A stretch of DNA of 54,547 bases from an uncultured Lentisphaerales bacterium (GCA_943788985.1 CALSSJ010000016.1:1-54547), one strand, 5' to 3'. Shown: positions 41,249 through 54,547, counted from the stretch's first letter. Translations and numbers: made by a program. Notes: a model not told the origin generated them from the sequence alone.

Positions 41249-41531
41249 ACCGTCTTAATTTACCAGCTTTGTAGGGAAACTATCCGCATGACAGATTGCT
41301 TTTCTGATCAGTTTCAGGCAGTAATTGCCGGTTTCCGGCCACGCGTCGAGCGCCATTTAGGCAGCCCGGCGCGTTATTGTCTTAGCGCGTACGTGCGCGG
41401 GATGTTTTCGTTTCAGTTTTTGTCTCAAGCACTCCAGGAGTACCAGCGTGCATACGCTACCCCCGCGTCAAGCGCCCAATGCGCCGCCCTCATCGGGCCC
41501 AATTTTTCCCACACGAACCACGAGGTCAGTT

Positions 41532-44500
41532 ATGAATAATTTACGTTCCGGGTCATCCCGGCCGACATGGCATCTTGCTATGCTCGGTTTCGCGTTAGCG
41601 GTGCTGGCGATGCCAGGCTTGAGTGCTGTGGTCAGTGCCACGTACTTTGATTCCAACAACAACGGCCAGGTTGACACGGTTGACGTTGAGATGGACAATA
41701 CCGTTGCTGGCAGTTCCTTTGAGGCTTCGGACTGGACCTTCAGCATTACCGATGTTGCGGCAACGGCAGGAGTGGCGCAGACACCGGCCGTAAACGTGTT
41801 CCGACTTACGCTGACGGGCATGCCGGCCAATGACACCGCACCTACCCTGACCGTGAGTTACACGAATGGAGGGGGCGGAGCCGACGACCTACAGGTAGGG
41901 GGAGGCGCTCACGCCAACTTTACCATTGCCGCGGACGATGGTGCCGAGCCGATCATGGTGAGTGCAACAGCAGTTGACACTGGTCTCTTGACGGATCCGG
42001 ATTCGATCGAGATTGAGTTCTCCGAAGATGTAACCGTCCCGGCACTTCAATTAGACGCCTATAACGTCGGGGCATCAACGATCACCGGAATTACCCAACT
42101 GACTGCGAATACCATCGAAATTCAGCTGGATGCTCAGATCACGGCAAGTGTGAGCACCATCCGCTATGATGCTGCGAATGGTGACTCGTTTGACGGTGTT
42201 GGCATCGAGCAACCCGACAACGACGCCGTGACTCTGGTTCTGCCACCTACTGCAAATCGAATTACCACAGCAGACGGAGACAGCAATGGTTTCATTGATC
42301 AGATCATCATTGAGTTCAACTCAACTGTTACGGCCGAGAACTTTACAGGTGCCTACTCCGTTGCAGGCTACGTGATCGACAATGGTGCGGTTGAGGATAC
42401 CAGAGTTCTGTTGAACTTGGAGGAACGTAACATTGTGGATACATGGGCAACCCCACAGGTAACCTACACGGCTGCAGGTGATACACGACGAGAGTTCGAG
42501 GTAGGCGGGGAAACGGTCACGGCTCGGGTTCAACCTTTCTCTGAAACAGCAACCGATGCTGCGCCGCCAGTGCTGATCAATGCTTCAACGCGTGATATAG
42601 ACTTCAATGGTCACATTGACACCATCCTAGTGCGCTACTCCGAGCTGGTCACGGAAGCTGGGCGCGCCCTACACCGTTGCAGGGTATCGAGACCGCGGCC
42701 TGGACCTGAACGTGCGCTACATCGAACGCGGCACCGACTCTGTCTACACCGTGGGGGAGGACGACCTCTGGATTGATGTCGATGACTCCGAAACGTACTC
42801 TGTACCGGGGACGTCACCATCGACGATCTGGGCGCTGCTGCAATTGGCGACGCTGGGCACCAGCCGCTAGACTGGTTCGCGACCATTCAACTTGTGGAGG
42901 CACAGAGAACCCCGACACGGGCGCGACCGCCGCAGCTGACCTACGTTCGAGCTGACGGTGGGGTCCGGGACGCCGCCGGAAACGAGGCCGTTGACGGCTC
43001 CAGCCGACACGCCGATTGATCGTGCCCAGCCCGTCATGTATGCGTTGGAGACGCGCGACGCTGACGGTAATGGTGCCCTTGACGGCATCTATATTGAGTT
43101 CAGTGAGACCGTCGAACATTCAGGACACCGGGAATAGCCCGGGTATTCCCGGCATTACGGTTGTGGACCAGATCAACGGTGATCACCTACGATCCGACGC
43201 CACGCCAGCTACGACGGCAACGCTCCCTCCATTGTCCTGGCGCTGAGACGAGGTGTTCACTGCCGATACCAATGTGTACTACGACACCGGCATTGTCCCG
43301 ACCATTACCTATGACGGCAACGGGAACATCCGGGACGTAACCAACGATGCTGCGACCGGCTCGAACTATCCTGCGCGCCGCAGATCGTCGACGATACCAC
43401 GATCATGACTGACGCCGGTCCTGGATGGCACCTTGGGAACGGCTGACGACGACCTTTCGGGCTCTGACGGGCGAGGACTGACCGCTACGACGACCGGGCA
43501 TTTCCGGCTGCAATCGTCAGTACCTATCATCACCGTACGCGAACGGCCCCTTCGGTGCCTTGGTCTCCGACGAGGTCATCGGTATCCTTGGCGCCGACGC
43601 TGACGATACGGTCACCATCCAGTTTTCCGAGTCGATGACGCACGAACGCCCTGCGCTCACAGCCGGGGAGCCATTCACGACTCGATTGCCGTTTGCCGGT
43701 CAGAATGGCGCGCGCAGACCGCAGCCAATGGGCTTGGCGACCTGGATACGCCCATCTGGGATCGAGTGGCAGCAGACCTTTAATAACGCAGACGACACGA
43801 TCATCATCTACCTGGACGGGCCCCAGCCCGGGGCTGGCCGAACACTACGCCGTCGGACCTTGAGCGTTGGTGCACTACGATCAATACGCCGGACCTCGTT
43901 CGATTTACCGACGCCGCTGGCAATGACGTCCCGAGCAATCACGGCCATCGGCGACCTCAACCCGGTGTACTGGCCGTCCGGTTCGCTGGCTGGAAACACC
44001 GAGCCCTGGATCACGCCGACGATCATTGACGAGCAACACTTCCTGCTGCCGCATTCGGCCGAAACCCGCCTGATCCAGATCGTGATCGCCAACAACTCGC
44101 CGAACCACTCTCCCGGAGCTGCATCCCAAATTTGATCAGTCGTTCAACTTCAACCAGCTGCATGTCAACTACCCGTTTGATGACCCGCTGACACCCCCGG
44201 TGGATCCCTTTCCAGCTGCTGAGTACATTGCCCCGTTGTCCAGCACCCACACCTCCGGTTTCCAGATTGACGTTGAGTTTCGCGGCTGGCATCAATCCCA
44301 CACGTTGCATGCCATTGGATCTTCAGGGCTTCAACACCTTCAAGTATCCATGAGGCGATTTCAACTCTCCCTACGGTGGATACGTTCTATCATCCTCTGC
44401 GGTTCCACGACGCAACCATCGACCCGGCTGGTCCCACCCAGACCGGTACGTTCTTCGTCGAGTTGCGGACCCATAACACCGTCGTGCATGGGGTAAACTT

Positions 44501-47500
44501 CGATACCTGGATCCAGGAAGGATCGGTGGGGCGGCGGCTGCCAAGCTTCTGTTTCGAGTTTCCCTCTGACGCCAGCCATTCCACCTGGGTGCACAACGTC
44601 TATCAGCGTGGCGACCACATTCTGGCGGGTGCCGAGCCGGCAGACAGCTTGCACCGCAGCACTCCCTCGCTTGTCTGGCAGCATTTGGCCGCAACTGGGA
44701 ATCCCTGGACGGACGTGCACGTTCACTCGGCAGGTGCGCGGTCTGGAATCCGCTGACCGACAGTATCGTGCACGAGACAGCGACTGCGGCTACGAAGTGC
44801 TGGCTGGTAGCGACCTTGGCTTGGCGCTGGCTGACATGAATGGCACACTGCCTCCTAACCTTAATGTTATAGCGGTCGGCACCGAATGGGATCCAGACAC
44901 CGACACGATTGCGATCGACGCGATGACTTCGGTACCCGCCAGACAGCCTACCCAGCGTACCTGCCCGGGACTGGGGACGGCTCCAACCTGATCACCGTTG
45001 TAAATCAGTTGAGCGATATCAGCACCGGTAGCCTGCTGTTGCCGAACAGCAACAACTTTGGCGTAATCGGCTTGAATGCGGCATCGACGCAGGGCGACAC
45101 GCTGGAGCGCGTGGTCGTCACCTTTCGTGCGGCTCGGCATGTCTGGCAGGATGACCCGGCTGGTCAAGTGGGTGTATTCGAGCCTGGCATTGATGAGCTG
45201 TTCACCGCCACGGGGGTGCAGTTGACCGAAGGTGCCACGCCTGGCACTGGCGTGTTCTTGTGGGCCTCCGAAACCCACCAGCCTGACGAACAGGCAGGGC
45301 ATTTGGTGGCCGAACCCTATCGGCCTGGGATTGATGAGGCTTGGTATGATAACGACGGCGACGGCCGCTATACACCGGGCTCTGATGCCCTCATTTCGCA
45401 AGGCTCAACGCCAGGCATCCAGTGGGCGAGCCGCGCTCCAGAGCCCTTGGGTGGAATCAGCAGCTGGGCCAGCGAAGGTAACATCTCCGTGGAGGCCGAC
45501 TTTGAAGGGGCCAATGTTCCTGTAACACGTCTTGCCTATATCGACAGCAACGGCAGTGGCAAGTTTGAGGTTGTTGGTGACCATATGTTTGTGGACCAGG
45601 GCACCTTGGGAGTATTCGACCCCGCCGACATCCAGACGGCCCATGGAGTTGGTGCAGCACCAGCACTGGGTGACGACTTGACCGTGATCGACTACAGCGT
45701 TCGCTATGCGTTCTATGATGAAAACGACAATGGCCTCTATGACGAAGGCATCGATGAGTTGTACTACGACATCAGCGGCTATGGGATCTTCAACCGGCCC
45801 AATGGCGCCGATGATGACGGCGATGGCCTGATCGATGAAGCAGACGAGAATGACGTTGTCATTTCCCGTGGTGCCAACCAGACCCTCGATGCCGCTGATG
45901 GTGCTGTGGTGACCAACATCTTCTACACCTTGAGCACCTCAGATTTTCGTCCCCTGCAGATTGGCGGAGATGAAGAGTATTTTCGCAGCGGCGTTGCCCT
46001 GTTTCGTGACGACGATACCACGATCTTGGACAATTCCGGCCTGTTTAACGATCCGGAAGGCGGCGGCGCTGACAATCGCATGACTCTGGGCACGATGGAC
46101 TGGATCGATGGCTATGCTGCTGATGATGGCATTCTGCGCGTGGAGCTGATTCCCCAGATTGACCCGTTGATTCCTGCAGTACAGCGTCCTTGGGACGACC
46201 TGCCGGTGGACGATGCCGGGGGCAATGCTGGTAACGACTGGTTTGTGGCGATCAAGACCAGCAACACGATTTCGCAGTGGGATGCCTTCACGGTCAGCGT
46301 GGGGCGCTATTCCGGGATTATGTCCGGTGAGCTATCCGCTGGTAACGAGACTCTGCTGAAGGGCATACATGATCGTGCTGGCCTGAGTAGCCATTCGCGT
46401 ACGTCCGAATGGATCAGCCGGATGATGGTCCCGAATGCGCCGGGCGTGTTGAGCATCAATCCAGAAGACCCGACGTCAGTAGAGCCGAATGGCCGCATTG
46501 CGTTGAACGATGTGGCGCTGGCCCCTCGTTCCAAGGGCGATACGGTTGAGGAAATGTGGGCAGTCGGCAATGAGGGCGGCGTGCGCTACAGCGCCGATGG
46601 CGGCCTGACCTGGGTTGAAGCCCACGATGGTGGCGGGTTTCCGGTATCGTCGGTTGCTGGCACAGAGGCACCTCGTGATCTGCTGGCCGTTGACGTCGCA
46701 CCAGGACGTCCGCATACAGCCTGGGTCGCGGGTACGGACGGGTATTTCGGCAATGTGATTACCGATGGCACTGGCGCGTTTTTCGGTGAAGTTGACCAAT
46801 CTCTGGCAGTGGCTGCGCTCTGGGGGGGAGACCCCGTACCATCCTTGAACGCCATCCAGACAATCAACAGCAACAACGTCATTGCCGTGGGTGATGATGG
46901 GGCGATTGTGCATTTCTGGGATCCTGCGTTCCCAACCGGGTACTCCACAGATGGACCGGGCAACCCTGCAGCGCCCGTTGGTTTCAATGTTCAATTCCAT
47001 CGCCAGCACGTCGGCCTTGGCCTCGATTCCGACTTCCGTGACGTTGCCTTTATCAACGATGTCGAAGGCTGGATTGTGGGTACGGTTGGCGCTGATGGTA
47101 AAGCCACCATCCTTCATACTGAGAACGGCGGTCAGTCCTGGCGCCGCGTTGAGGGCGCACCAGCCGTTGATTACAATACGATTTCGGTCACCAATGAAGG
47201 GGATGGGTACATCGGCGGTGCGGCCGGAACGGTGCTGCAGATCAACGCTGGCGGCGAAATCGTTGAGTTCTATGTGTATGATACGGACGGGTTTCCAACC
47301 CCCGGGGACGACATTCTGGCGCTCTATTACGAACCAGGGACAGCCGCTAACGGCTCTGACCTGCCAGGGATTGAGGCGATGCTGGCGGTCAACCGGCAGG
47401 GGGAGATTTTCGATGTAATTCTCGAAAACGTTGTTGGACTGGGGGCAATCGGTCCCAACCCGGCAGAGGCGGCTGGAAGCGCCTTGACGGGGATTGCAGC

Positions 47501-50500
47501 AAGCCCGCACGACATCGTATTTGACAGCCCGTATTCAAGCGCCATTGAAGGAGGTGCGGGCATCATGAACCAGGCTCCCCTGAGTTCTTCCGACGCCACT
47601 ACGCCCACCTTGATGGTGCTGCCGGTTACAGCCCCGGCCGTGACCTCAAGTCGCAGCAGTGCTGCCCAGGAAGACGATACCGGCCAGCCGGGAGTGTCAA
47701 ACGGCCAATTGGACGCGCGTTCGTATCCACCAGAGGTAGACACACCGCACGCAGCATTCGGCATTAATCTCATCGATGGCTATGAATTCGGCAAGCAGTT
47801 CACGGGGACGCGCATTTACATTCGCAGCGAAGACGGAAGCTTCGACCCGAATCGCGACTTGATGTCGATTGCGGCCGATGCCACCTCGGGGATCGCGATC
47901 TACTCGGATCAGGACGAAAACGGGTTCTTCGATGCGCGGGTTGATTCGGTTGTGGCGCTCGGCACGCAGCTGCCCGAGTGGCAGGTCAGCGAATGGTCAT
48001 CCAATGCCCATCCCGATGGCGGTTCTCAACAACAATACGCCGGTTCCGGTTGAGTGGTACATTGACCTGGCCCCACAGGCGGGGCAGCCAATCGAAGATG
48101 CCCACCTGCCTGAGCCGACCGACCGTGTGCATGATCCCAGCGGCCTCCTGTACATCAGCGATGAAGCTTCCGATGAAGCCACCGCCAATGTTCACTGGCG
48201 GCCAGGCGATCCGGTCACCGCGGCAGGATTTCAGGAGGTCACGCTGCCTGAGGCCAATGTTGGTGCTGATTGGTTTGTGGTGATCCGCACCTCTGAGCAG
48301 ATCAATTACCGTGCACGGTGGACCATGGGGATGAAGCATGATCCGGCGTCGAGTGTTGGTGATCCGATCGATATGCAGGGCGACGGGCTGAACATCTCCC
48401 AATGGCGTGGCTACCGTGCGCGTTTGCCGATTCTGTTCGATGACCTGTCAGCTGCTGCAAACAATGAGATTACTGACAACAGTGCGCCGACATCCCTGAT
48501 CGGGGTAAACATCTTCGATGGCAATCCTACCCTGGCATTGCCGCAAGACCAGCAATTTCGGGTGGAGCGTCAGGACGAAACCCTGGAAGCCATCACCGTC
48601 CAGATTTGGAATTCGACCGTCACTGAAGGAGTCACTGCTGGTCAGGTCACGCCAGACGACTTTCTGCCGATCCGCTTCAATGGCATTGACGATGATGGCG
48701 ACGGTGAAATCGACGAGTTGGATGAATTGGGTGTTACCATTTGGCGTGATGCTGACGGCAACGGCGTATTTGATCCGGCCAATGACTTTCCGGTGCCAAT
48801 TAGTGGTGCCGAAGATTGGAATACCGAATGGTATCCATTCTGGACGCGCCTGACCATCGCCAATCTGACCGACAACCGCACGTCGGTGCTCAACACCGTG
48901 CCTTTGTCCGAGGGCGTCGCAGCCACTGGCAGCCTGGCCGGCGAAGTCTTCTATCTCGTGATCTGACCGGTGACGGTGCGTTTCACGGCGGGCTGCAGAA
49001 ACGGCCTGGCACGACATCGACGGCCAATGGGCAATATGACCTTGGCGAACCGCTTGTCGTCTTCAACCAAGCGCAATCCCGCCCGGGAGCGACCGGCACC
49101 CCGATCGCCGGGGCCGTGTTCCGCGACAACGACAATGATGGCGCCTTCACGGCTCTGGTTGACGATGTCTGGCGGAGACAATGGCGACAATGTGTTCTGC
49201 CAACGATGAGCTGACCGATCGCGACCCCCGGCAGCCAGGTCGGGATCGGACGATACCGCCCACTACGATCCCGACCTGCGTTTCGTGGACACCAACACCA
49301 ACGGTACGTGGGACGAACACGAAGACGTGTTCTACGACGCCAACGGCGATGGGCTGTGGAATGACTTCTATCGCTATGCCGCCGCCGCCGACGTCCTGCT
49401 GGCCGGCGTCCGCCCACTGGAAGGTTCGGATGTGCCAGACCAGGCTGACGAGATGCGCGGTGCAGTTCTCCAACCCACTACAACAGGCTGGACTGGCCTG
49501 AGCTATATCGACGCACCAGCCGGTGTTGCAGACTTCGACAATCGCAACGACACAATCTTTGTCGATGCCAACAACGACGGCCAGTTCAATCCGGGCGAAA
49601 CCGTCTTGGCCGGTTCGACACCGGGCTGAGCGTCACACTGCGCACACCGCTGAAGGGGCATCAAGAGCCGCCCAGTGGACCTCCATCTGGGTCGACGATG
49701 CTGTGGCTGGCGGCGACTTCGACCCCGCCGCCGACGCCATCGTCGCAGTCGGCGGCGTGCCGCAGCGCGAAATCCTCATCTATGGTGGCGAGCGCCGCGA
49801 AATCACGCCTGATGCCGTAGTGGTCACGCGCGAAGGCGGCGCCACCGGCCACGAGCCCGCTGGCCAAGGCAATCTGCTGTTCATCAATGAGAATCCAGCC
49901 GTAAACAACCACTGGGATCCAGGCGAGCTGGTATTCTATGACAGTGGTTCTGATCTTACCGGCGAGCCACTCGCTGGCGATCTGCTGGATGAACTGGCCG
50001 CTACTACCCCGGCCGACAACAATCGCTACGACTTGGGCGAGCCGGTTATCAACGGCTACGTGCCGAACAATGATCTCGGCCTGGCCAACGGCAACGACTA
50101 TTTTGTCGTCGTGCGAACCAGCGATGTGTTAAGCAATGGCGACAACTTCCGCGTTCGTGTTGGCTACGATGTGCTGGAAGACCAGCGCGCCAATCAAGAC
50201 CCCATACACCCACCGTTTGATCTGGTGGTTGGTGATGTCGATCCCCATGTCGCTCGCACCGTGCGCCACAGTACGTTGGCCTCGGGTGAAGGCTATCCCG
50301 ACGCGCACACCTACAACATGCTGACCACGGGCATAGTTACGGCCCGCGCGATTACGGACGTTGGTCTTAGCCGTTTAACACAGAATGGGCAACGCATCGA
50401 CGCAACCAGCGGTCCGCTGGGTATTTTTGCGATCTCCTTTAATGAAGGTGACACCGGGCAGACTTTTAACAGTATTACGCTTGAGCTTGATTCACCCTCT

Positions 50501-53500
50501 GACAACTTTGATCCCCGTACGGATCTTCTACGGTTGCAGGCTAATCAGTCGCTGAGCTTGGCAGCAGCCAGCGGCATCGTGCTTTACGCCGACAATGGCG
50601 ACGGAATTTTTGATCCATTGGTCGATTCTGAGCTTTACTACACCATTGCCAACGCCTCCAACTGGGACATTGATGGGGATCAGTTTTCGATCACGTTCAA
50701 CCTGGCGACTCCGCAAGCATTGCCGTCCTCCGCTGATGTCAGCGCGGACTTCTTCATTGCGGTGCAGACCTCCAATACTATTGAGTTTCTGGACGATTTC
50801 GTACTATCGATTCCTGAGGGTGGCATTGTGACCTCTTTGGGACCGGTCAATGAGACTGTTACCAGCCACGTGGTGACAGCGAACATTCCCACAGTGTTGC
50901 ACAACTTGGTGACGCCTGGTGATACGCTCAGCGTTGCAAACGGAGGCCTGGTTGCTCTCGCCGGGATTGATGCCTGGGACAGCGGTCGAGCAAATGGTGC
51001 TCTCGATAGCGTACGTCTGCGTATTTCGGGAAATGTGGCCACCACGGACTTCATGCCATTGGATGACCCCACCATGCCAGGTTTCAGCCTGTGGGTCGAC
51101 AATGGCGATGGTGAGTTCAGCCCGCGATACGATCGTCGGGTGACCTTGCGGGATACCCGCTGGCAGACAACCGGTAGCTACGTGCAGATCGAGCTGGTTC
51201 CGGGCGACGCCCTCGCCGACACGCTCGTCGAAGATAACGATGTTGGAGTGATCGACTTCTTTGTGGTGGCTGCAACGAGTCCTACATTCAATCTCTACAA
51301 GACCTTTACGGTGGCAATCAACCCGCTGCTCAATAACGGCGGCGTAACCTACAACGTGAGCCCGAGCAACGAAGAGCTCACGACATTGACCTACGGTGCC
51401 CTGACCGATTCCGACGGCGACGGCATTTCGGACGACTGGGAAACCACGCATTTCGGCGGAACCGGCAACGATGCCTCGACCGACACGGATGGCGATACCC
51501 TGAATGATTACTACGAATACTTGGCTGGGACCGATCCCAACCACTTCGACTCCGACGGCGACGGGATTCATGACGGTGACGAAGACCCAGATCAGGATGG
51601 CCTGACAAACCAGGACGAAGCTGGCTATGCCACACATCCTCTTAGCATCGATACGGATGATGACGGGCTGACCGATGGCGAAGAAGCCACCGGGATTGAC
51701 AACTTTGCTGGAATTACTACACGTTTGGATCCTGCTGCTCAGGTCACTGATCCAACCAATTCACACGATCCGGCACGGGCCCTTGCTGCGAATTTCGGCG
51801 GCAACGCCAATGACTACATGTCCATTCCGGACACGTATAACTATCGCCTGCCACAGTGGACGATTGAGGCCTGGGTGCGTTTGGAGACCCTTCCAGGCGG
51901 AACCCACGCAATTATTCTGGACAAGAGTGTAGGCGGCGAAGTCAATTATCGTGTTGCCGTCGAGACGATTGGTGGCGAGGCCTATCCGTATGCGACGGTG
52001 ACCATGGCTGATGGTGCCCGCCAGTATAAGGTAGGTGGCGATGATACCAATCCAGCTGATCTGGGACGAGACGTACTTGTAAATGGTGGTCAGAGCACGA
52101 TTCCGGTGGGGGAGTGGGTTCACGTTGCGGTCGTCTTCGATCCGACCACAGAGACCTTCAGCTTGTATCTCGATGCCAATCGAGTTGCCTATGTGCGTGA
52201 CATTCTTGATGCTGCCGATGTGGACACCGATTCTTGGCGACAACACATTGACCACGGCAGCCGATCAGGCAATCCGTGCCGGCCAATTTCTGGCCGGTCA
52301 GATTGACGATCTGCGGATCTGGGGCGATGTCCGGAGCGAAGATTTGATTCGCGCCAACTATCAGTTCGACCTAGATCATTCTTACACGTCTTCGATCTAC
52401 GAACTGCCCTTTAAGAATGGCCCGGTTTATCCGGCACCTGGTCGCTCTTCCTCGCTCACGGGCGACGCCGAGCATATTGTGGTTCAGACCTATCGTCCGA
52501 TGGCAGCAGAGCTGTCCGCTTTGGAAGCGGCAGGTGTTTCGGTTGTGAGCGCGGTCAGCAGCAATGCGGTTGTTGCCGTTGCCAATTCCGAGCAATTGGA
52601 CAGCTTGGGATCGGTAGTGCGCTGGGCCGGTCCGGTTGCGGCAACCCACAAAATTGCCAAGACAGTATTCCGCGGTGCGGCCGCGCAACCGGTAGTCGTA
52701 GAGTTCTTCGACGATGTTGCCGAAGCCGACGCAATTGCGGCCTTGGAGGCCGCTGGTGCCGAACGCATTCACAGTGGCTACCTTGGCAGGACGCTCTTGG
52801 TTGCTCGTGCAACCGGTGAGCAGGTCGATTCGTTGGCCGGGGCTGACGAAGTCTCTTGGATCATGCCAGCAGCTGATGCAGTTGTTCGGGATGCCAACAC
52901 GCATATCTGCCTGCATCGCCCAACGATCGATGGCGTGGTTCTGGCCCCATTCTCCGTATTCACGAATGGCTGGGATGGCCCCGGCCTCGGGACCGCAGAT
53001 CTGACCTACTTCTTTGAGAATGGTACACCTGATATGGAAGGCGAGGAGGGCATCTGCTTGACAGCCATGGCGTCCTGGAGTGCAGTCGCATCCATCAACT
53101 GGACGGCTGGAACGGCTGCTGGTGCCAACGATGCCATCGACATTTCCTGGGCATCTGGTGATCACGGCGATGGCTCCGCCTTCGACGGGCCAAGCGGCGT
53201 ACTGGCACATGCATTCTTTCCGAACGACGGCAGTCTTGGCAGCAATCCCGAGCCAATTGCTGGTGACTGTCATTTTGACGAAGCGGAAACGTGGGCCGCA
53301 GACAGCGCAGACGGCATTGTTTTGGAGGCGGTAGCACTGCATGAATTCGGCCATTCGCTGGGTCTTGGCCACAGCGACGAGACGGATGCAGTCATGTACG
53401 CATTTTACGGTCCTGATAGAACAGTTTTGCATGCCGACGATATTAACGGGATTCAGTCGTTGTACGGCGCCGTCGGCGGAACGCCCCCAGACGATCCGGG

Positions 53501-54547
53501 CACGCCAGACGATCCCAACGATCCGGGCGTTCCCGACATTCCCAACACACCGTTTGGCCCTCTGACCGGCCTGATCGGATATTTCAGTTTCAACGATGGT
53601 ACTGCTGGAATCCGCGGATTTGATGGTACTTGGAATGCCGATGCGCTTGTTCTGACGGGTGGCGGCCAAACTTGGTTCGACAGCGGAGCAACTGCTGGCG
53701 AGTACGATGCCAACGATACAGTTCTATCTGCTGCGGCACCTACGGCGGGCACGGCTGGTACCGTTCTCAGCAACGTCCTGTTTGATGATGAAGATGGTAG
53801 CGGCTTCTGGACCAGCGGCGAAGGCGTCTGGATTGACAATGGGACGGTTCGCGGTGCGCTTGATGGTGGCGATACTCTGATTGCTACGGGCGCCACTGTT
53901 GGCGATCTTGGCACCGAAGCCAATCGCGATCCACAAGTTCGTCAGGTTGAAAACTATGGCTTTGGCAGTGGCTGGCTGAATGGCTGGCGTCACGCCGGGA
54001 CGTTGCATGGCCAAGCAGATTTTGTTGAAGTTGGCCCACGCTTCACCATCCTAGTGGATTCTGATGGCGACGGCATGCCCGACGACTGGGAAGTCGCGCA
54101 TGGCCTGAATCCAGATAGCGCCGCAGATGCAACCGGCGATGGTGACCTTGACGGGCTTACCAACCTCTACGAATACTTGGCGGGCACCAACCCCACGGTT
54201 GTCGATACTGATTACGATGGCATGACGGACGATTTAGAAGATTCCGATGCCGACGGCCTGACCAACGCCCAAGAACAGACCCTGGCCCTGCATCCCGGCC
54301 AGTGGGACACAGACGACGATGGTCACGGTGATGGGGCTGAAGTCGCGGCCAACGGCCAAGCTGATAATAGCGCGTTGACCCCAACTGGTTTCTCCTACAA
54401 GGCCATGAGCTTTGATGGTGACGCGGGCAGCTATGTCTCGCTTCCCGATGAAGCACGCTTTGCCATGGAGACCTTTACGATCGAAGGCTGGGTCCGCCCG
54501 AGCTCTACGTGGGTTGACGAAACCCGTGGTGTGATCGCCGAGCGCGC
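41532..54547 (+). CDS. Giant secreted multidomain protein (>4300 aa, 3'-truncated, many indels): Ig-like repeats, BNR propeller, Ca-binding repeats, LamG domains, matrixin-type (M10A) metalloprotease
   Basis: GAGGT RBS and signal peptide. The ORF pieces 41448-42776, 43560-44135, 44886-48053, 47869-48966, 49285-49629, 49523-52306 and an unlisted frame open from ~52224 to the window end read as one acidic D/G/T-rich protein across small indels, with no new signal peptides seen. HEFGHSLGLGH at 53340-53372. Confidence 0.8.

Follow-up and report, generated by a model that had tools for sequence, protein, structure and literature searches.

A zymogen-like matrixin probably inserted in a LamG-type fold of a giant bacterial surface protein

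Can a complete, zymogen-like protease be carried inside a lectin-like fold? The question is raised by a 54,547-nucleotide stretch of DNA from an uncultured Lentisphaerales bacterium (GCA_943788985.1, CALSSJ010000016.1:1-54547; hereafter the window), one whole contig (C16) of a metagenome-assembled genome (MAG) of 4.58 Mb, 48 contigs and 83.6% completeness. The window carries a giant surface-protein gene (41532-54547, plus strand, like all features below unless noted) that runs off the contig end, and an earlier note on this DNA had proposed that it encodes a matrix metalloproteinase (MMP) module nested in a LamG domain. Our analysis suggests that a complete zymogen-like matrixin is probably inserted in a LamG/pentraxin-like sandwich of this giant TSP3/LamG protein. 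The inserted unit would comprise two small α/β pro-repeats, a Cys-bearing segment and an M10 domain with intact catalytic and structural metal sites, and its insertion point would lie between the last core strand and helix of the LamG fold (..IDDLRIW..IRANY) and a β-hairpin (..YFSFNDG.. / ..GWLNGW..LHGQADF..).

The matrixin catalytic domain and its metal sites

The catalytic domain (52998-53468; some feature extents in this report were counted by hand from translations) matches Peptidase_M10 (PF00413) over profile positions 6-159 of 159, with 135.3 bits against a cut-off of 24 (E = 2.3e-39) and 139.5 bits in the genome-wide search. A phmmer search of the PDB gave MMP-8 (1mnc) as the best sequence match (E = 1.6e-29), in an alignment spanning HGDGS.FDGP.G.LAHAF, GD.HFD..E.W, HEFGHSLGL.HS and DDI.GIQ..YG. 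Translation in frame 3 places HGDGSAFDG at 53163-89, GDCHFDE at 53262-82, the catalytic zinc motif HExxHxxGxxH, here HEFGHSLGLGHS, at 53340-75, the Met-turn AVMY at 53388-99 and DDINGIQSLYG at 53436-68. All the motifs that the earlier note had listed are thus found where it put them, with a Pfam match far beyond chance.

The catalytic residues and the Met, all present in the window, are kept in 152-154 of 155 aligned relatives. The four S-loop structural-zinc ligands (His, Asp, His, His) correspond residue for residue with those of MMP-8 (HGD.., ..LAHAF.., ..GDCHFD..) and are kept in 129-139 of the 155. Within the nested subfamily, the catalytic motif and Met-turn occur in 20 of 20 rows and the HxD structural-zinc motif in only 5; the window keeps every site. 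The Pfam match, the MMP-8 alignment and this site conservation are consistent with the animal-type M10A character that the earlier note gave to both sets of motifs.

The likeness to vertebrate pro-MMPs (MMP-8, MMP-3, MMP-1 and MMP-13; M10A) covers the full-length catalytic domain (34-43% identity), the HExxHxxGxxH motif, the Met-turn, the structural-zinc ligands, the DDINGIQxLYG end and a single conserved upstream Cys. Unlike those enzymes, the window unit has no PRCGxPD motif and no hemopexin domain, is predicted to carry two α/β pro-repeats, and is apparently nested in a giant bacterial protein. A second, weaker matrixin match lies elsewhere in the same genome (C6:34061-34543, E = 1.4e-11), in a 1386-residue open frame.

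Position of the protease relative to the LamG fold

The LamG core preceding the protease is read in two frames. Its N-terminal part (51767-52231, frame 2) matches Laminin_G_3 (PF13385) over profile positions 3-103 of 151, with 45.4 bits against a cut-off of 27.6 (E = 1.2e-11), and the remaining profile positions fall in frame 3, past a frame break. This C-terminal part (52233-52361) holds the last core strand, GQIDDLRIWG, and a helix ending in IRANY (52347-61), and aligns with LLDEVRIW...RYNAPEAY of P0002, the closest homologue (4572 residues, E = 6.7e-151, 46% identity), which contains two copies of the arrangement. After the pro-region and the matrixin come a Pro/Asp-rich linker (53469-53567, from translation) and the strand GLIGYFSFNDG (53568-53600), the counterpart of a ..FRFDDGG.. 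element that follows the matrixin of homologues.

The earlier note had taken GLIGYFSFNDG as the strand that closes the LamG domain. A hairpin element is indeed supported here by spacing, models and docking, but GLIGYFSFNDG is only its first half; the second, ...GWLNGWRHAGTLHGQADFVEV (53946-54032), aligns with DWLxGWxxAGxLxGAxF of the homologues and follows a 115-residue insert in the hairpin loop (53601-53945). This insert is specific to the window protein, being missing from 16 full-length homologue rows. It resembles Asp/Gly-rich repeats further upstream in the giant gene, and a shorter insert of ~28 residues occurs in the same hairpin loop of a unit with an S8 protease on another contig of the genome, C23.

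Contig C23 carries another giant gene, with an open frame of 10,029 residues, and its LamG units without an MMP show where the hairpin (YxFDDGG) ordinarily lies. In three long open frames of this contig, searched with hand-made patterns for the core end (..(I/V)D(D/E)(V/L)R(I/V)W) and for the hairpin, 13 of 19 hairpin motifs fall 25-36 residues after a core-end motif, at which distance the hairpin would complete the sandwich, and the stretch between the previous hairpin and a core end measures 255-1220 residues. In the window the core end and the hairpin are 423 residues apart, with the pro-matrixin between them. Two C23 loci within the 10,029-residue frame (L017:2-3001:- and L018:2-2899:-) have their hairpins 445 and 443 residues after the core end, and each gap holds a fervidolysin-type prodomain and a Peptidase_S8 domain (E = 4e-57 and 1.2e-54), at the same site as the matrixin. 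In a further protein, P0078 (locus L016, G135), a VWA_2 domain (residues ~2339-2560, E = 4.4e-18) stands between the LamG core end and a ..YYPFDDGG.. hairpin.

A plain tandem order would require no nesting: the LamG domain would be complete at ..IRANY, the pro-matrixin would follow it, and the hairpin would supply strands of the next TSP3/LamG unit or form an independent linker. In P0002 the Laminin_G_3 match already covers the whole profile (positions 2-151) ahead of the pro-region, and a TSP3 block followed by a LamG core does lie beyond the hairpin in L016 and in the window, where the second TSP3 repeat block (54057-54341; TSP3_bac, E = 2.7e-4) leads into a LamG core cut by the contig end (54399-54545; Laminin_G_3, E = 1.6e-6, residues 781-813 of the open reading frame (ORF)). 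A similar strand stands at the N-terminus of many single-domain LamG_3 proteins. Against this order, no LamG follows the hairpin in the second copy of P0002, in P0003, or in loci L014, L015 and L022, and these five cases argue that the hairpin is not the start of a next LamG domain. The spacing also disfavours it, with hairpins lying 25-36 residues past cores and hundreds of residues before the next core end.

Structure prediction bears on the same choice. Model 1, an AlphaFold2 (AF2) model of P0002 as the closest intact homologue (21-row alignment), was compared with known structures, and 32 of the 50 rows were LamG- or pentraxin-type and ran from residues 1-13 to residues 615-642, across the insert. 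They include the LG domain of PAPP-A (8hgg_C; match values 21.5 and 3.1 over 211 residues), PTX3 (7zl1_B; 20.7 and 2.4 over 191 of 215), Limulus SAP (3flp; 18.8 and 2.9 over 197 of 217) and laminin LG5 (1qu0; 15.1 and 2.7 over 168 of 181). Another 13 rows (CBM40, clostridial binding domains and AbnA) end at residues 204-210, and 5 are MMPs. The structure prediction that the earlier note had called for, run in this way on P0002, therefore gives LamG/pentraxin alignments across the insert, but with a hairpin of low confidence.

Model 2 was a competition between hairpins, in which an ordinary C23 unit was modelled as a post-S8 hairpin, a TSP3 block, a core and the core's own downstream hairpin (AF2, 16-row alignment). 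The upstream hairpin (residues 1-63) has nearly no secondary structure and a predicted local distance difference test score (pLDDT) of 32-39. The downstream hairpin forms strands at 377-382, 389-392 and 399-401, in blocks with a mean pLDDT of 55-74. In none of the 50 structural rows does the alignment begin before residue 152 or include the upstream hairpin, and in 37 it extends at least to residue 388 (at most to 432). Only the downstream hairpin joins the core in this model, a further point against the tandem order.

The hairpin and the core of P0002 also come together when docked as two chains (core 1-212 and hairpin 578-630). The best of three controls had an ipSAE score of 0.00, and the P0002 pair one of 0.65 (runs 0.65, 0.67 and 0.59). 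In a calibration that is only rough for the custom alignment used here, that mark was attained by 116 of 157 solved complexes and by 2 of 215 mismatched pairs. The runs share at least 77% of their contacts, the partner pLDDT is at least 49, and the predicted interface sets hairpin residues 582-590 and 611-622 against core residues 4-19 (the first strands) and 184-192 (the last strand), as expected of a strand closing the sandwich.

Several points weigh against nesting. The structural tests concern homologues and sister units, as distinct from the frame-broken core and insert-bearing hairpin of the window. The hairpin is modelled at low pLDDT (model 1, 36-71, which also favours the tandem order; model 2, 55-74), and the alignments are shallow, at 21 and 16 rows. 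The docking of a split domain may pass through memory of solved LamG and pentraxin folds, and the fold of the docked partner is uncertain. The ranges of the structural alignments give only the first and last aligned residues, and the core and hairpin motifs are hand-made regular expressions. Finally, in homologues all 151 positions of the Laminin_G_3 profile are complete before the insert, so that by Pfam the LamG domain appears whole; a domain table shows it as complete because the Pfam profile ends before the hairpin.

The hairpin as the start of the next LamG domain was rejected on the orphan hairpins, the spacing, model 2 and the docking. On all these lines of evidence, closing strands are the better supported reading of the hairpin, and the tandem order appears improbable. 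The earlier claim that the whole pro-matrixin lies within a LamG fold accordingly keeps its support from spacing, two AF2 models, docking and homologous hairpins without a next LamG, and is qualified by the low hairpin pLDDT and by the use of homologues and sister units in the structural tests.

The pro-region, its cysteine and latency

The pro-region spans the 212 residues that separate IRANY from the catalytic domain. It begins with a linker (52362-52466), whose equivalent in model 1 (residues 206-215) has a pLDDT below 50. Two predicted β-α-β-β-α-β units follow: pro-repeat 1 (52467-52655), homologous to model 1 residues 244-298 (E-H-E-E-H-E, pLDDT ~90), and pro-repeat 2 (52686-52871), homologous to residues 319-379 (E-H-E-H-E, pLDDT ~90); the likeness of the two units is one of secondary-structure order only, in the model of the homologue. 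A switch-like segment with a conserved Cys (52872-52997; HICLH at 52902-16, Cys codon at 52908-52910) leads into the catalytic domain.

No Pfam family at E ≤ 0.1 and no NCBIfam family was found for the pro-region (52362-52997), and by BLASTP it shows no resemblance to the S8 prodomain of the same genome (E = 28). A Fervidolysin_NPro-like hit was weak (E = 0.023) and present in 1 of 21 relatives. Language-model look-up of the pro-repeats returned CspB_prodomain, a subtilase prodomain, with a score of 0.93, which we take as a lead only. Foldseek with the whole of model 1 against the PDB was uninformative on the pro-part, its best 50 rows holding only MMP chains. The earlier note had described some 180 residues resembling tandem propeptide folds; two α/β repeats do appear in the homologue's AF2 model, but they belong to no Pfam family.

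The Cys is conserved in 128 of the 155 relatives, within a PV(H/Y)xCPG motif ~20 residues before GWDGPG. Of the 20 rows of the nested subfamily, 9 show it on visual inspection and 10 when counted with a script window. When model 1 is superposed on pro-karilysin (4r3v_A), 175 of 179 residues fall onto residues 390-578, beginning two residues before Cys392. Mature MMP catalytic domains mostly begin at 403-410 (a few rows earlier), and the chains of pro-MMP-3, pro-MMP-1 and pro-MMP-2 begin at 271-390. The difference between these starting points places the Cys-bearing segment, in the model, at the position of known latency peptides.

These features would allow the LamG scaffold to keep the protease latent, the catalytic zinc being blocked by the conserved Cys or its segment, until removal of the pro-part activates the enzyme. 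The cysteine switch proposed in the earlier note draws support from the conservation of the Cys and from the superposition of its segment on the pro-karilysin propeptide, but lacks the PRCGxPD motif and, in 11 of 20 nested relatives, the Cys itself. The motif of the helical prodomain was not found in the window, which reads ..THICLHRP.. at this place, and the pro-region matches no propeptide family. In MMP-1, moreover, the Cys presumably stands ~8 residues closer to the catalytic domain. All of this counts against latency; on the model, a working switch of a form other than PRCGxPD is conceivable, and we prefer cysteine-switch-like latency at roughly even chances.

The α/β repeats might instead be folding helpers or spacers, comparable to the intramolecular chaperones of subtilases, in an enzyme that is not Cys-latent. 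The prodomain of animal MMPs is a three-helix bundle, which the window unit lacks together with PRCGxPD; the look-up lead points to a subtilase-type prodomain; and among the nested relatives, 11 of 20 lack the Cys and 15 of 20 the HxD motif. We nevertheless regard this alternative as rather unlikely, as the Cys and its motif are so widely conserved among the relatives, ~20 residues ahead of GWDGPG, its segment takes the place of the pro-karilysin propeptide in model 1, and the pro-region accompanies the catalytic domain in ~130 of the 150 best-listed relatives.

Other latency systems differ from the one proposed here. In the available text of one study, karilysin is described as latent through an aspartate, and animal MMPs and mirolysin through a cysteine (PMC8259862). 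Karilysin (Tannerella forsythia; 4r3v, 2xs3 and 4in9), with its aspartate latency, is an N-terminal enzyme and is not nested, whereas the window unit appears nested and has a Cys. The karilysin propeptide is short.

Host gene, relatives and possible role

The giant gene begins with a signal-peptide-like N-terminus (MNNLRSG...LAVLAMPGLSA, within the ORF 41448-42776), and Pfam finds BNR/Ycf48-like, TSP3_bac, Laminin_G_3 and Peptidase_M10 domains along it. Bacterial, calcium-binding TSP3 repeats precede the LamG core (51407-51685; TSP3_bac, E = 1.7e-6, ORF residues 629-645). A signal peptide is thus combined with calcium-binding TSP3/LamG repeats of the kind usual in surface proteins, and the giant protein would be exported. 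A BNR/Ycf48-like β-propeller stretch (PF14870, E = 6.7e-9, 47004-47258) lies in the N-terminal third.

The gene is read in at least six frame pieces (frame 3, 44865-48050; frame 1, 47863-48963; frame 3, 48804-49211; frame 1, 49210-49626; frame 2, 49502-52303; and frame 3, 52083-54545), with more frame changes between 42.6 and 44.9 kb. The break inside the LamG core (52232-52256, frame 2 to frame 3, no strand assigned) separates ...WVHVAVVFD..., in frame 2 to 52231, from ...GQIDDLRIWG..., in frame 3 from 52233, and tblastn of P0002 against the window switches frame between 52201 and 52233. The earlier observation that the motifs lie in a frame absent from the ORF track was correct, and the cause, missed at the time, is that the LamG core is split by this break.

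Such a gene might be a decaying pseudogene, the architecture being real in relatives and yielding no product here. From 44.9 to 52.3 kb the window copy changes frame at least five times, and with the changes further upstream there are some ten or more in 13 kb. The housekeeping genes on the same contig (ArgRS, an SdhA-type flavoprotein and two helicases) are whole, as is the 10,029-residue frame of the other giant gene, on which grounds an error-ridden assembly was rejected as the cause of the breaks.

The breaks are to be read against other populations. The stretch was found in 20 runs from 9 studies, in marine and estuary metagenomes, and contigs of four runs (X1, X2, X4 and X6) were compared with the window over 44800-54547. 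X1, the best-matching run, has the same LamG break as the window, which again speaks for a dead copy, but it is possibly the window's own sample and hence not independent. X2, X4 and X6, from three other studies, have 5 substitutions and 4 fewer bases at 52216-52256, and these changes, applied to the window, give a continuous frame through LamG. At 48012 one base fewer in X1 and X4 removes the frame break there. Divergence between runs is strong at 48.8-49.7 kb, with 20-49 other letters and 5-18 gaps per 250-900 bases, and the breaks fall in the most run-variable stretches, as expected of a consensus across mixed strains. Over 52362-53480, in contrast, zero differences are listed in any of the four runs, a further 250 substitutions and 31 indels being unlisted. 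The 115-residue insert is covered without a break by the contigs of X1, X2 and X4, and mostly by that of X6. Apparent joints at 48220>50264 and 51426>54068 were disregarded, their sides being only 21 letters long and within repeats.

We read the gene as strain-variable and intact in most populations, with the window copy as either a consensus artefact or a broken allele; decay to a pseudogene seems to us the less probable account, at well under even chances. Programmed frameshifting is not favoured, given the in-frame alleles in other runs and the many breaks, although no search for shared slippery motifs was made. On C23 (124049-174982), adjoining open frames of 10,029, 1,351 and 5,638 residues overlap by ~60 bases at each junction; together they may form a single gene of ~17,000 codons that contains two frame breaks.

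An exhaustive, profile-free protein search with 52362-53480 gave 8194 hits at E ≤ 1e-3, 352 of them at E ≤ 1e-30; the counts of representatives in this report refer to the best-listed 150 of the 8194. The pro-region and catalytic domain are aligned together, near full length (from query residue 4-53), in the ~130 representatives mentioned above. In most representatives, proteins of 400-1300 residues, the module starts within ~100 residues of the N-terminus and is followed by other domains. Among named genomes, the stand-alone module is common in Acidobacteriota (Bryobacterales, Solibacter and others), whose secreted pro-matrixins share the pro-repeats and catalytic module and differ in having no LamG core before, no hairpin after, and other C-terminal domains.

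In 18 of the 150 representatives the matrixin is followed by ..(E/A)F(R/S)FDDGG.TAEDF....DWL..W..A..L.GA.F.. with TSP3 repeats coming next. Three of these proteins are shorter (P0003, P0005 and P0047); they are fragments beginning inside LamG, and every protein bearing this element therefore has a LamG core directly before the pro-region. A collinear block of ~795 residues (TSP3, LamG core, pro-matrixin, hairpin, TSP3) is present in 16 copies in 15 giant proteins. At least 26 of 80 genome loci match only query residues ~216-577, as expected of the stand-alone module; a full-length match (query residues 2-642) was found in only 1 of the 80 named genome loci, a Verrucomicrobiota MAG, and two further genome rows reach residues 627-639 without a LamG core. 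The module is present at E ≤ 1e-30 in 3 of 400 other sampled genomes of the window's phylum, each time in an open frame of 3206-3998 residues.

The known LamG-type proteins compared here differ from the proposed topology. Pentraxins and LamG/LNS domains (PTX3, 7zl1; SAP, 1gyk; Limulus SAP, 3flp; laminin LG5, 1qu0; and neurexin LNS) carry no inserted domain before the closing strands. In PAPP-A (pappalysin-1; 8hgg and 7y5n), an N-terminal LG domain adjoins a metzincin of family M43, and not M10; there the LG domain precedes the protease in series. The giant proteins of Omnitrophota are likewise repeat-rich (TSP3) surface proteins with internal proteases, and the available part of the preprint describes S8 and C39 peptidases proposed to cut the giant protein itself, and names no laminin or concanavalin-like domain, matrixin or lectin-fold nesting (bioRxiv 10.1101/2023.11.21.568195).

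Matrixins are described as widespread in bacteria, and bacterial MMPs as linked with chitinases in marine metagenomes, in the available portion of a 2025 paper that leaves laminin, LamG, propeptide, prodomain and cysteine switch unmentioned (PMC12587646). Our searches of the open-access literature turned up no account of a LamG fold with a protease inserted in it, although the supplements of the giant-gene preprint may list architectures. Matrixins of bacteria are known, as are giant LamG/TSP3 proteins; as far as our searches show, the novelty lies in a whole zymogen-like protease within a lectin-like fold.

If the matrixin is nested as we propose, the halves of the giant protein could remain joined via the hairpin after cleavage, because the cut falls inside a LamG loop. 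A bolder extension, which we consider a long shot, is that the loop before the hairpin is a general socket for whole domains (M10, S8 and VWA) and that the protease unit serves as a cleavable clasp: the backbone would be cut, strand complementation in the manner of SEA and GAIN domains would hold the halves together, and force or ligand could then release the distal half together with the active protease. The habitat of the runs, and the link between bacterial MMPs and chitinases, would suit a possible role in the binding and breakdown of proteinaceous matter in sea water. The self-release or contact-activated proteolysis put forward in the earlier note would be a hypothetical function.

The apparently nested arrangement recurs: at least 15 giant proteins keep the ~795-residue block, and elsewhere S8 proteases and a VWA domain occupy the site of the matrixin. 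Should the topology hold, domain borders in such proteins would be misplaced by annotation pipelines that treat domains as beads on a string. For studies of metzincin latency, the module would add to the known MMP pro-regions one of a second type, which bears a conserved cysteine, and for the giant surface proteins of marine bacteria it may represent a route to couple binding, latency and self-cutting.

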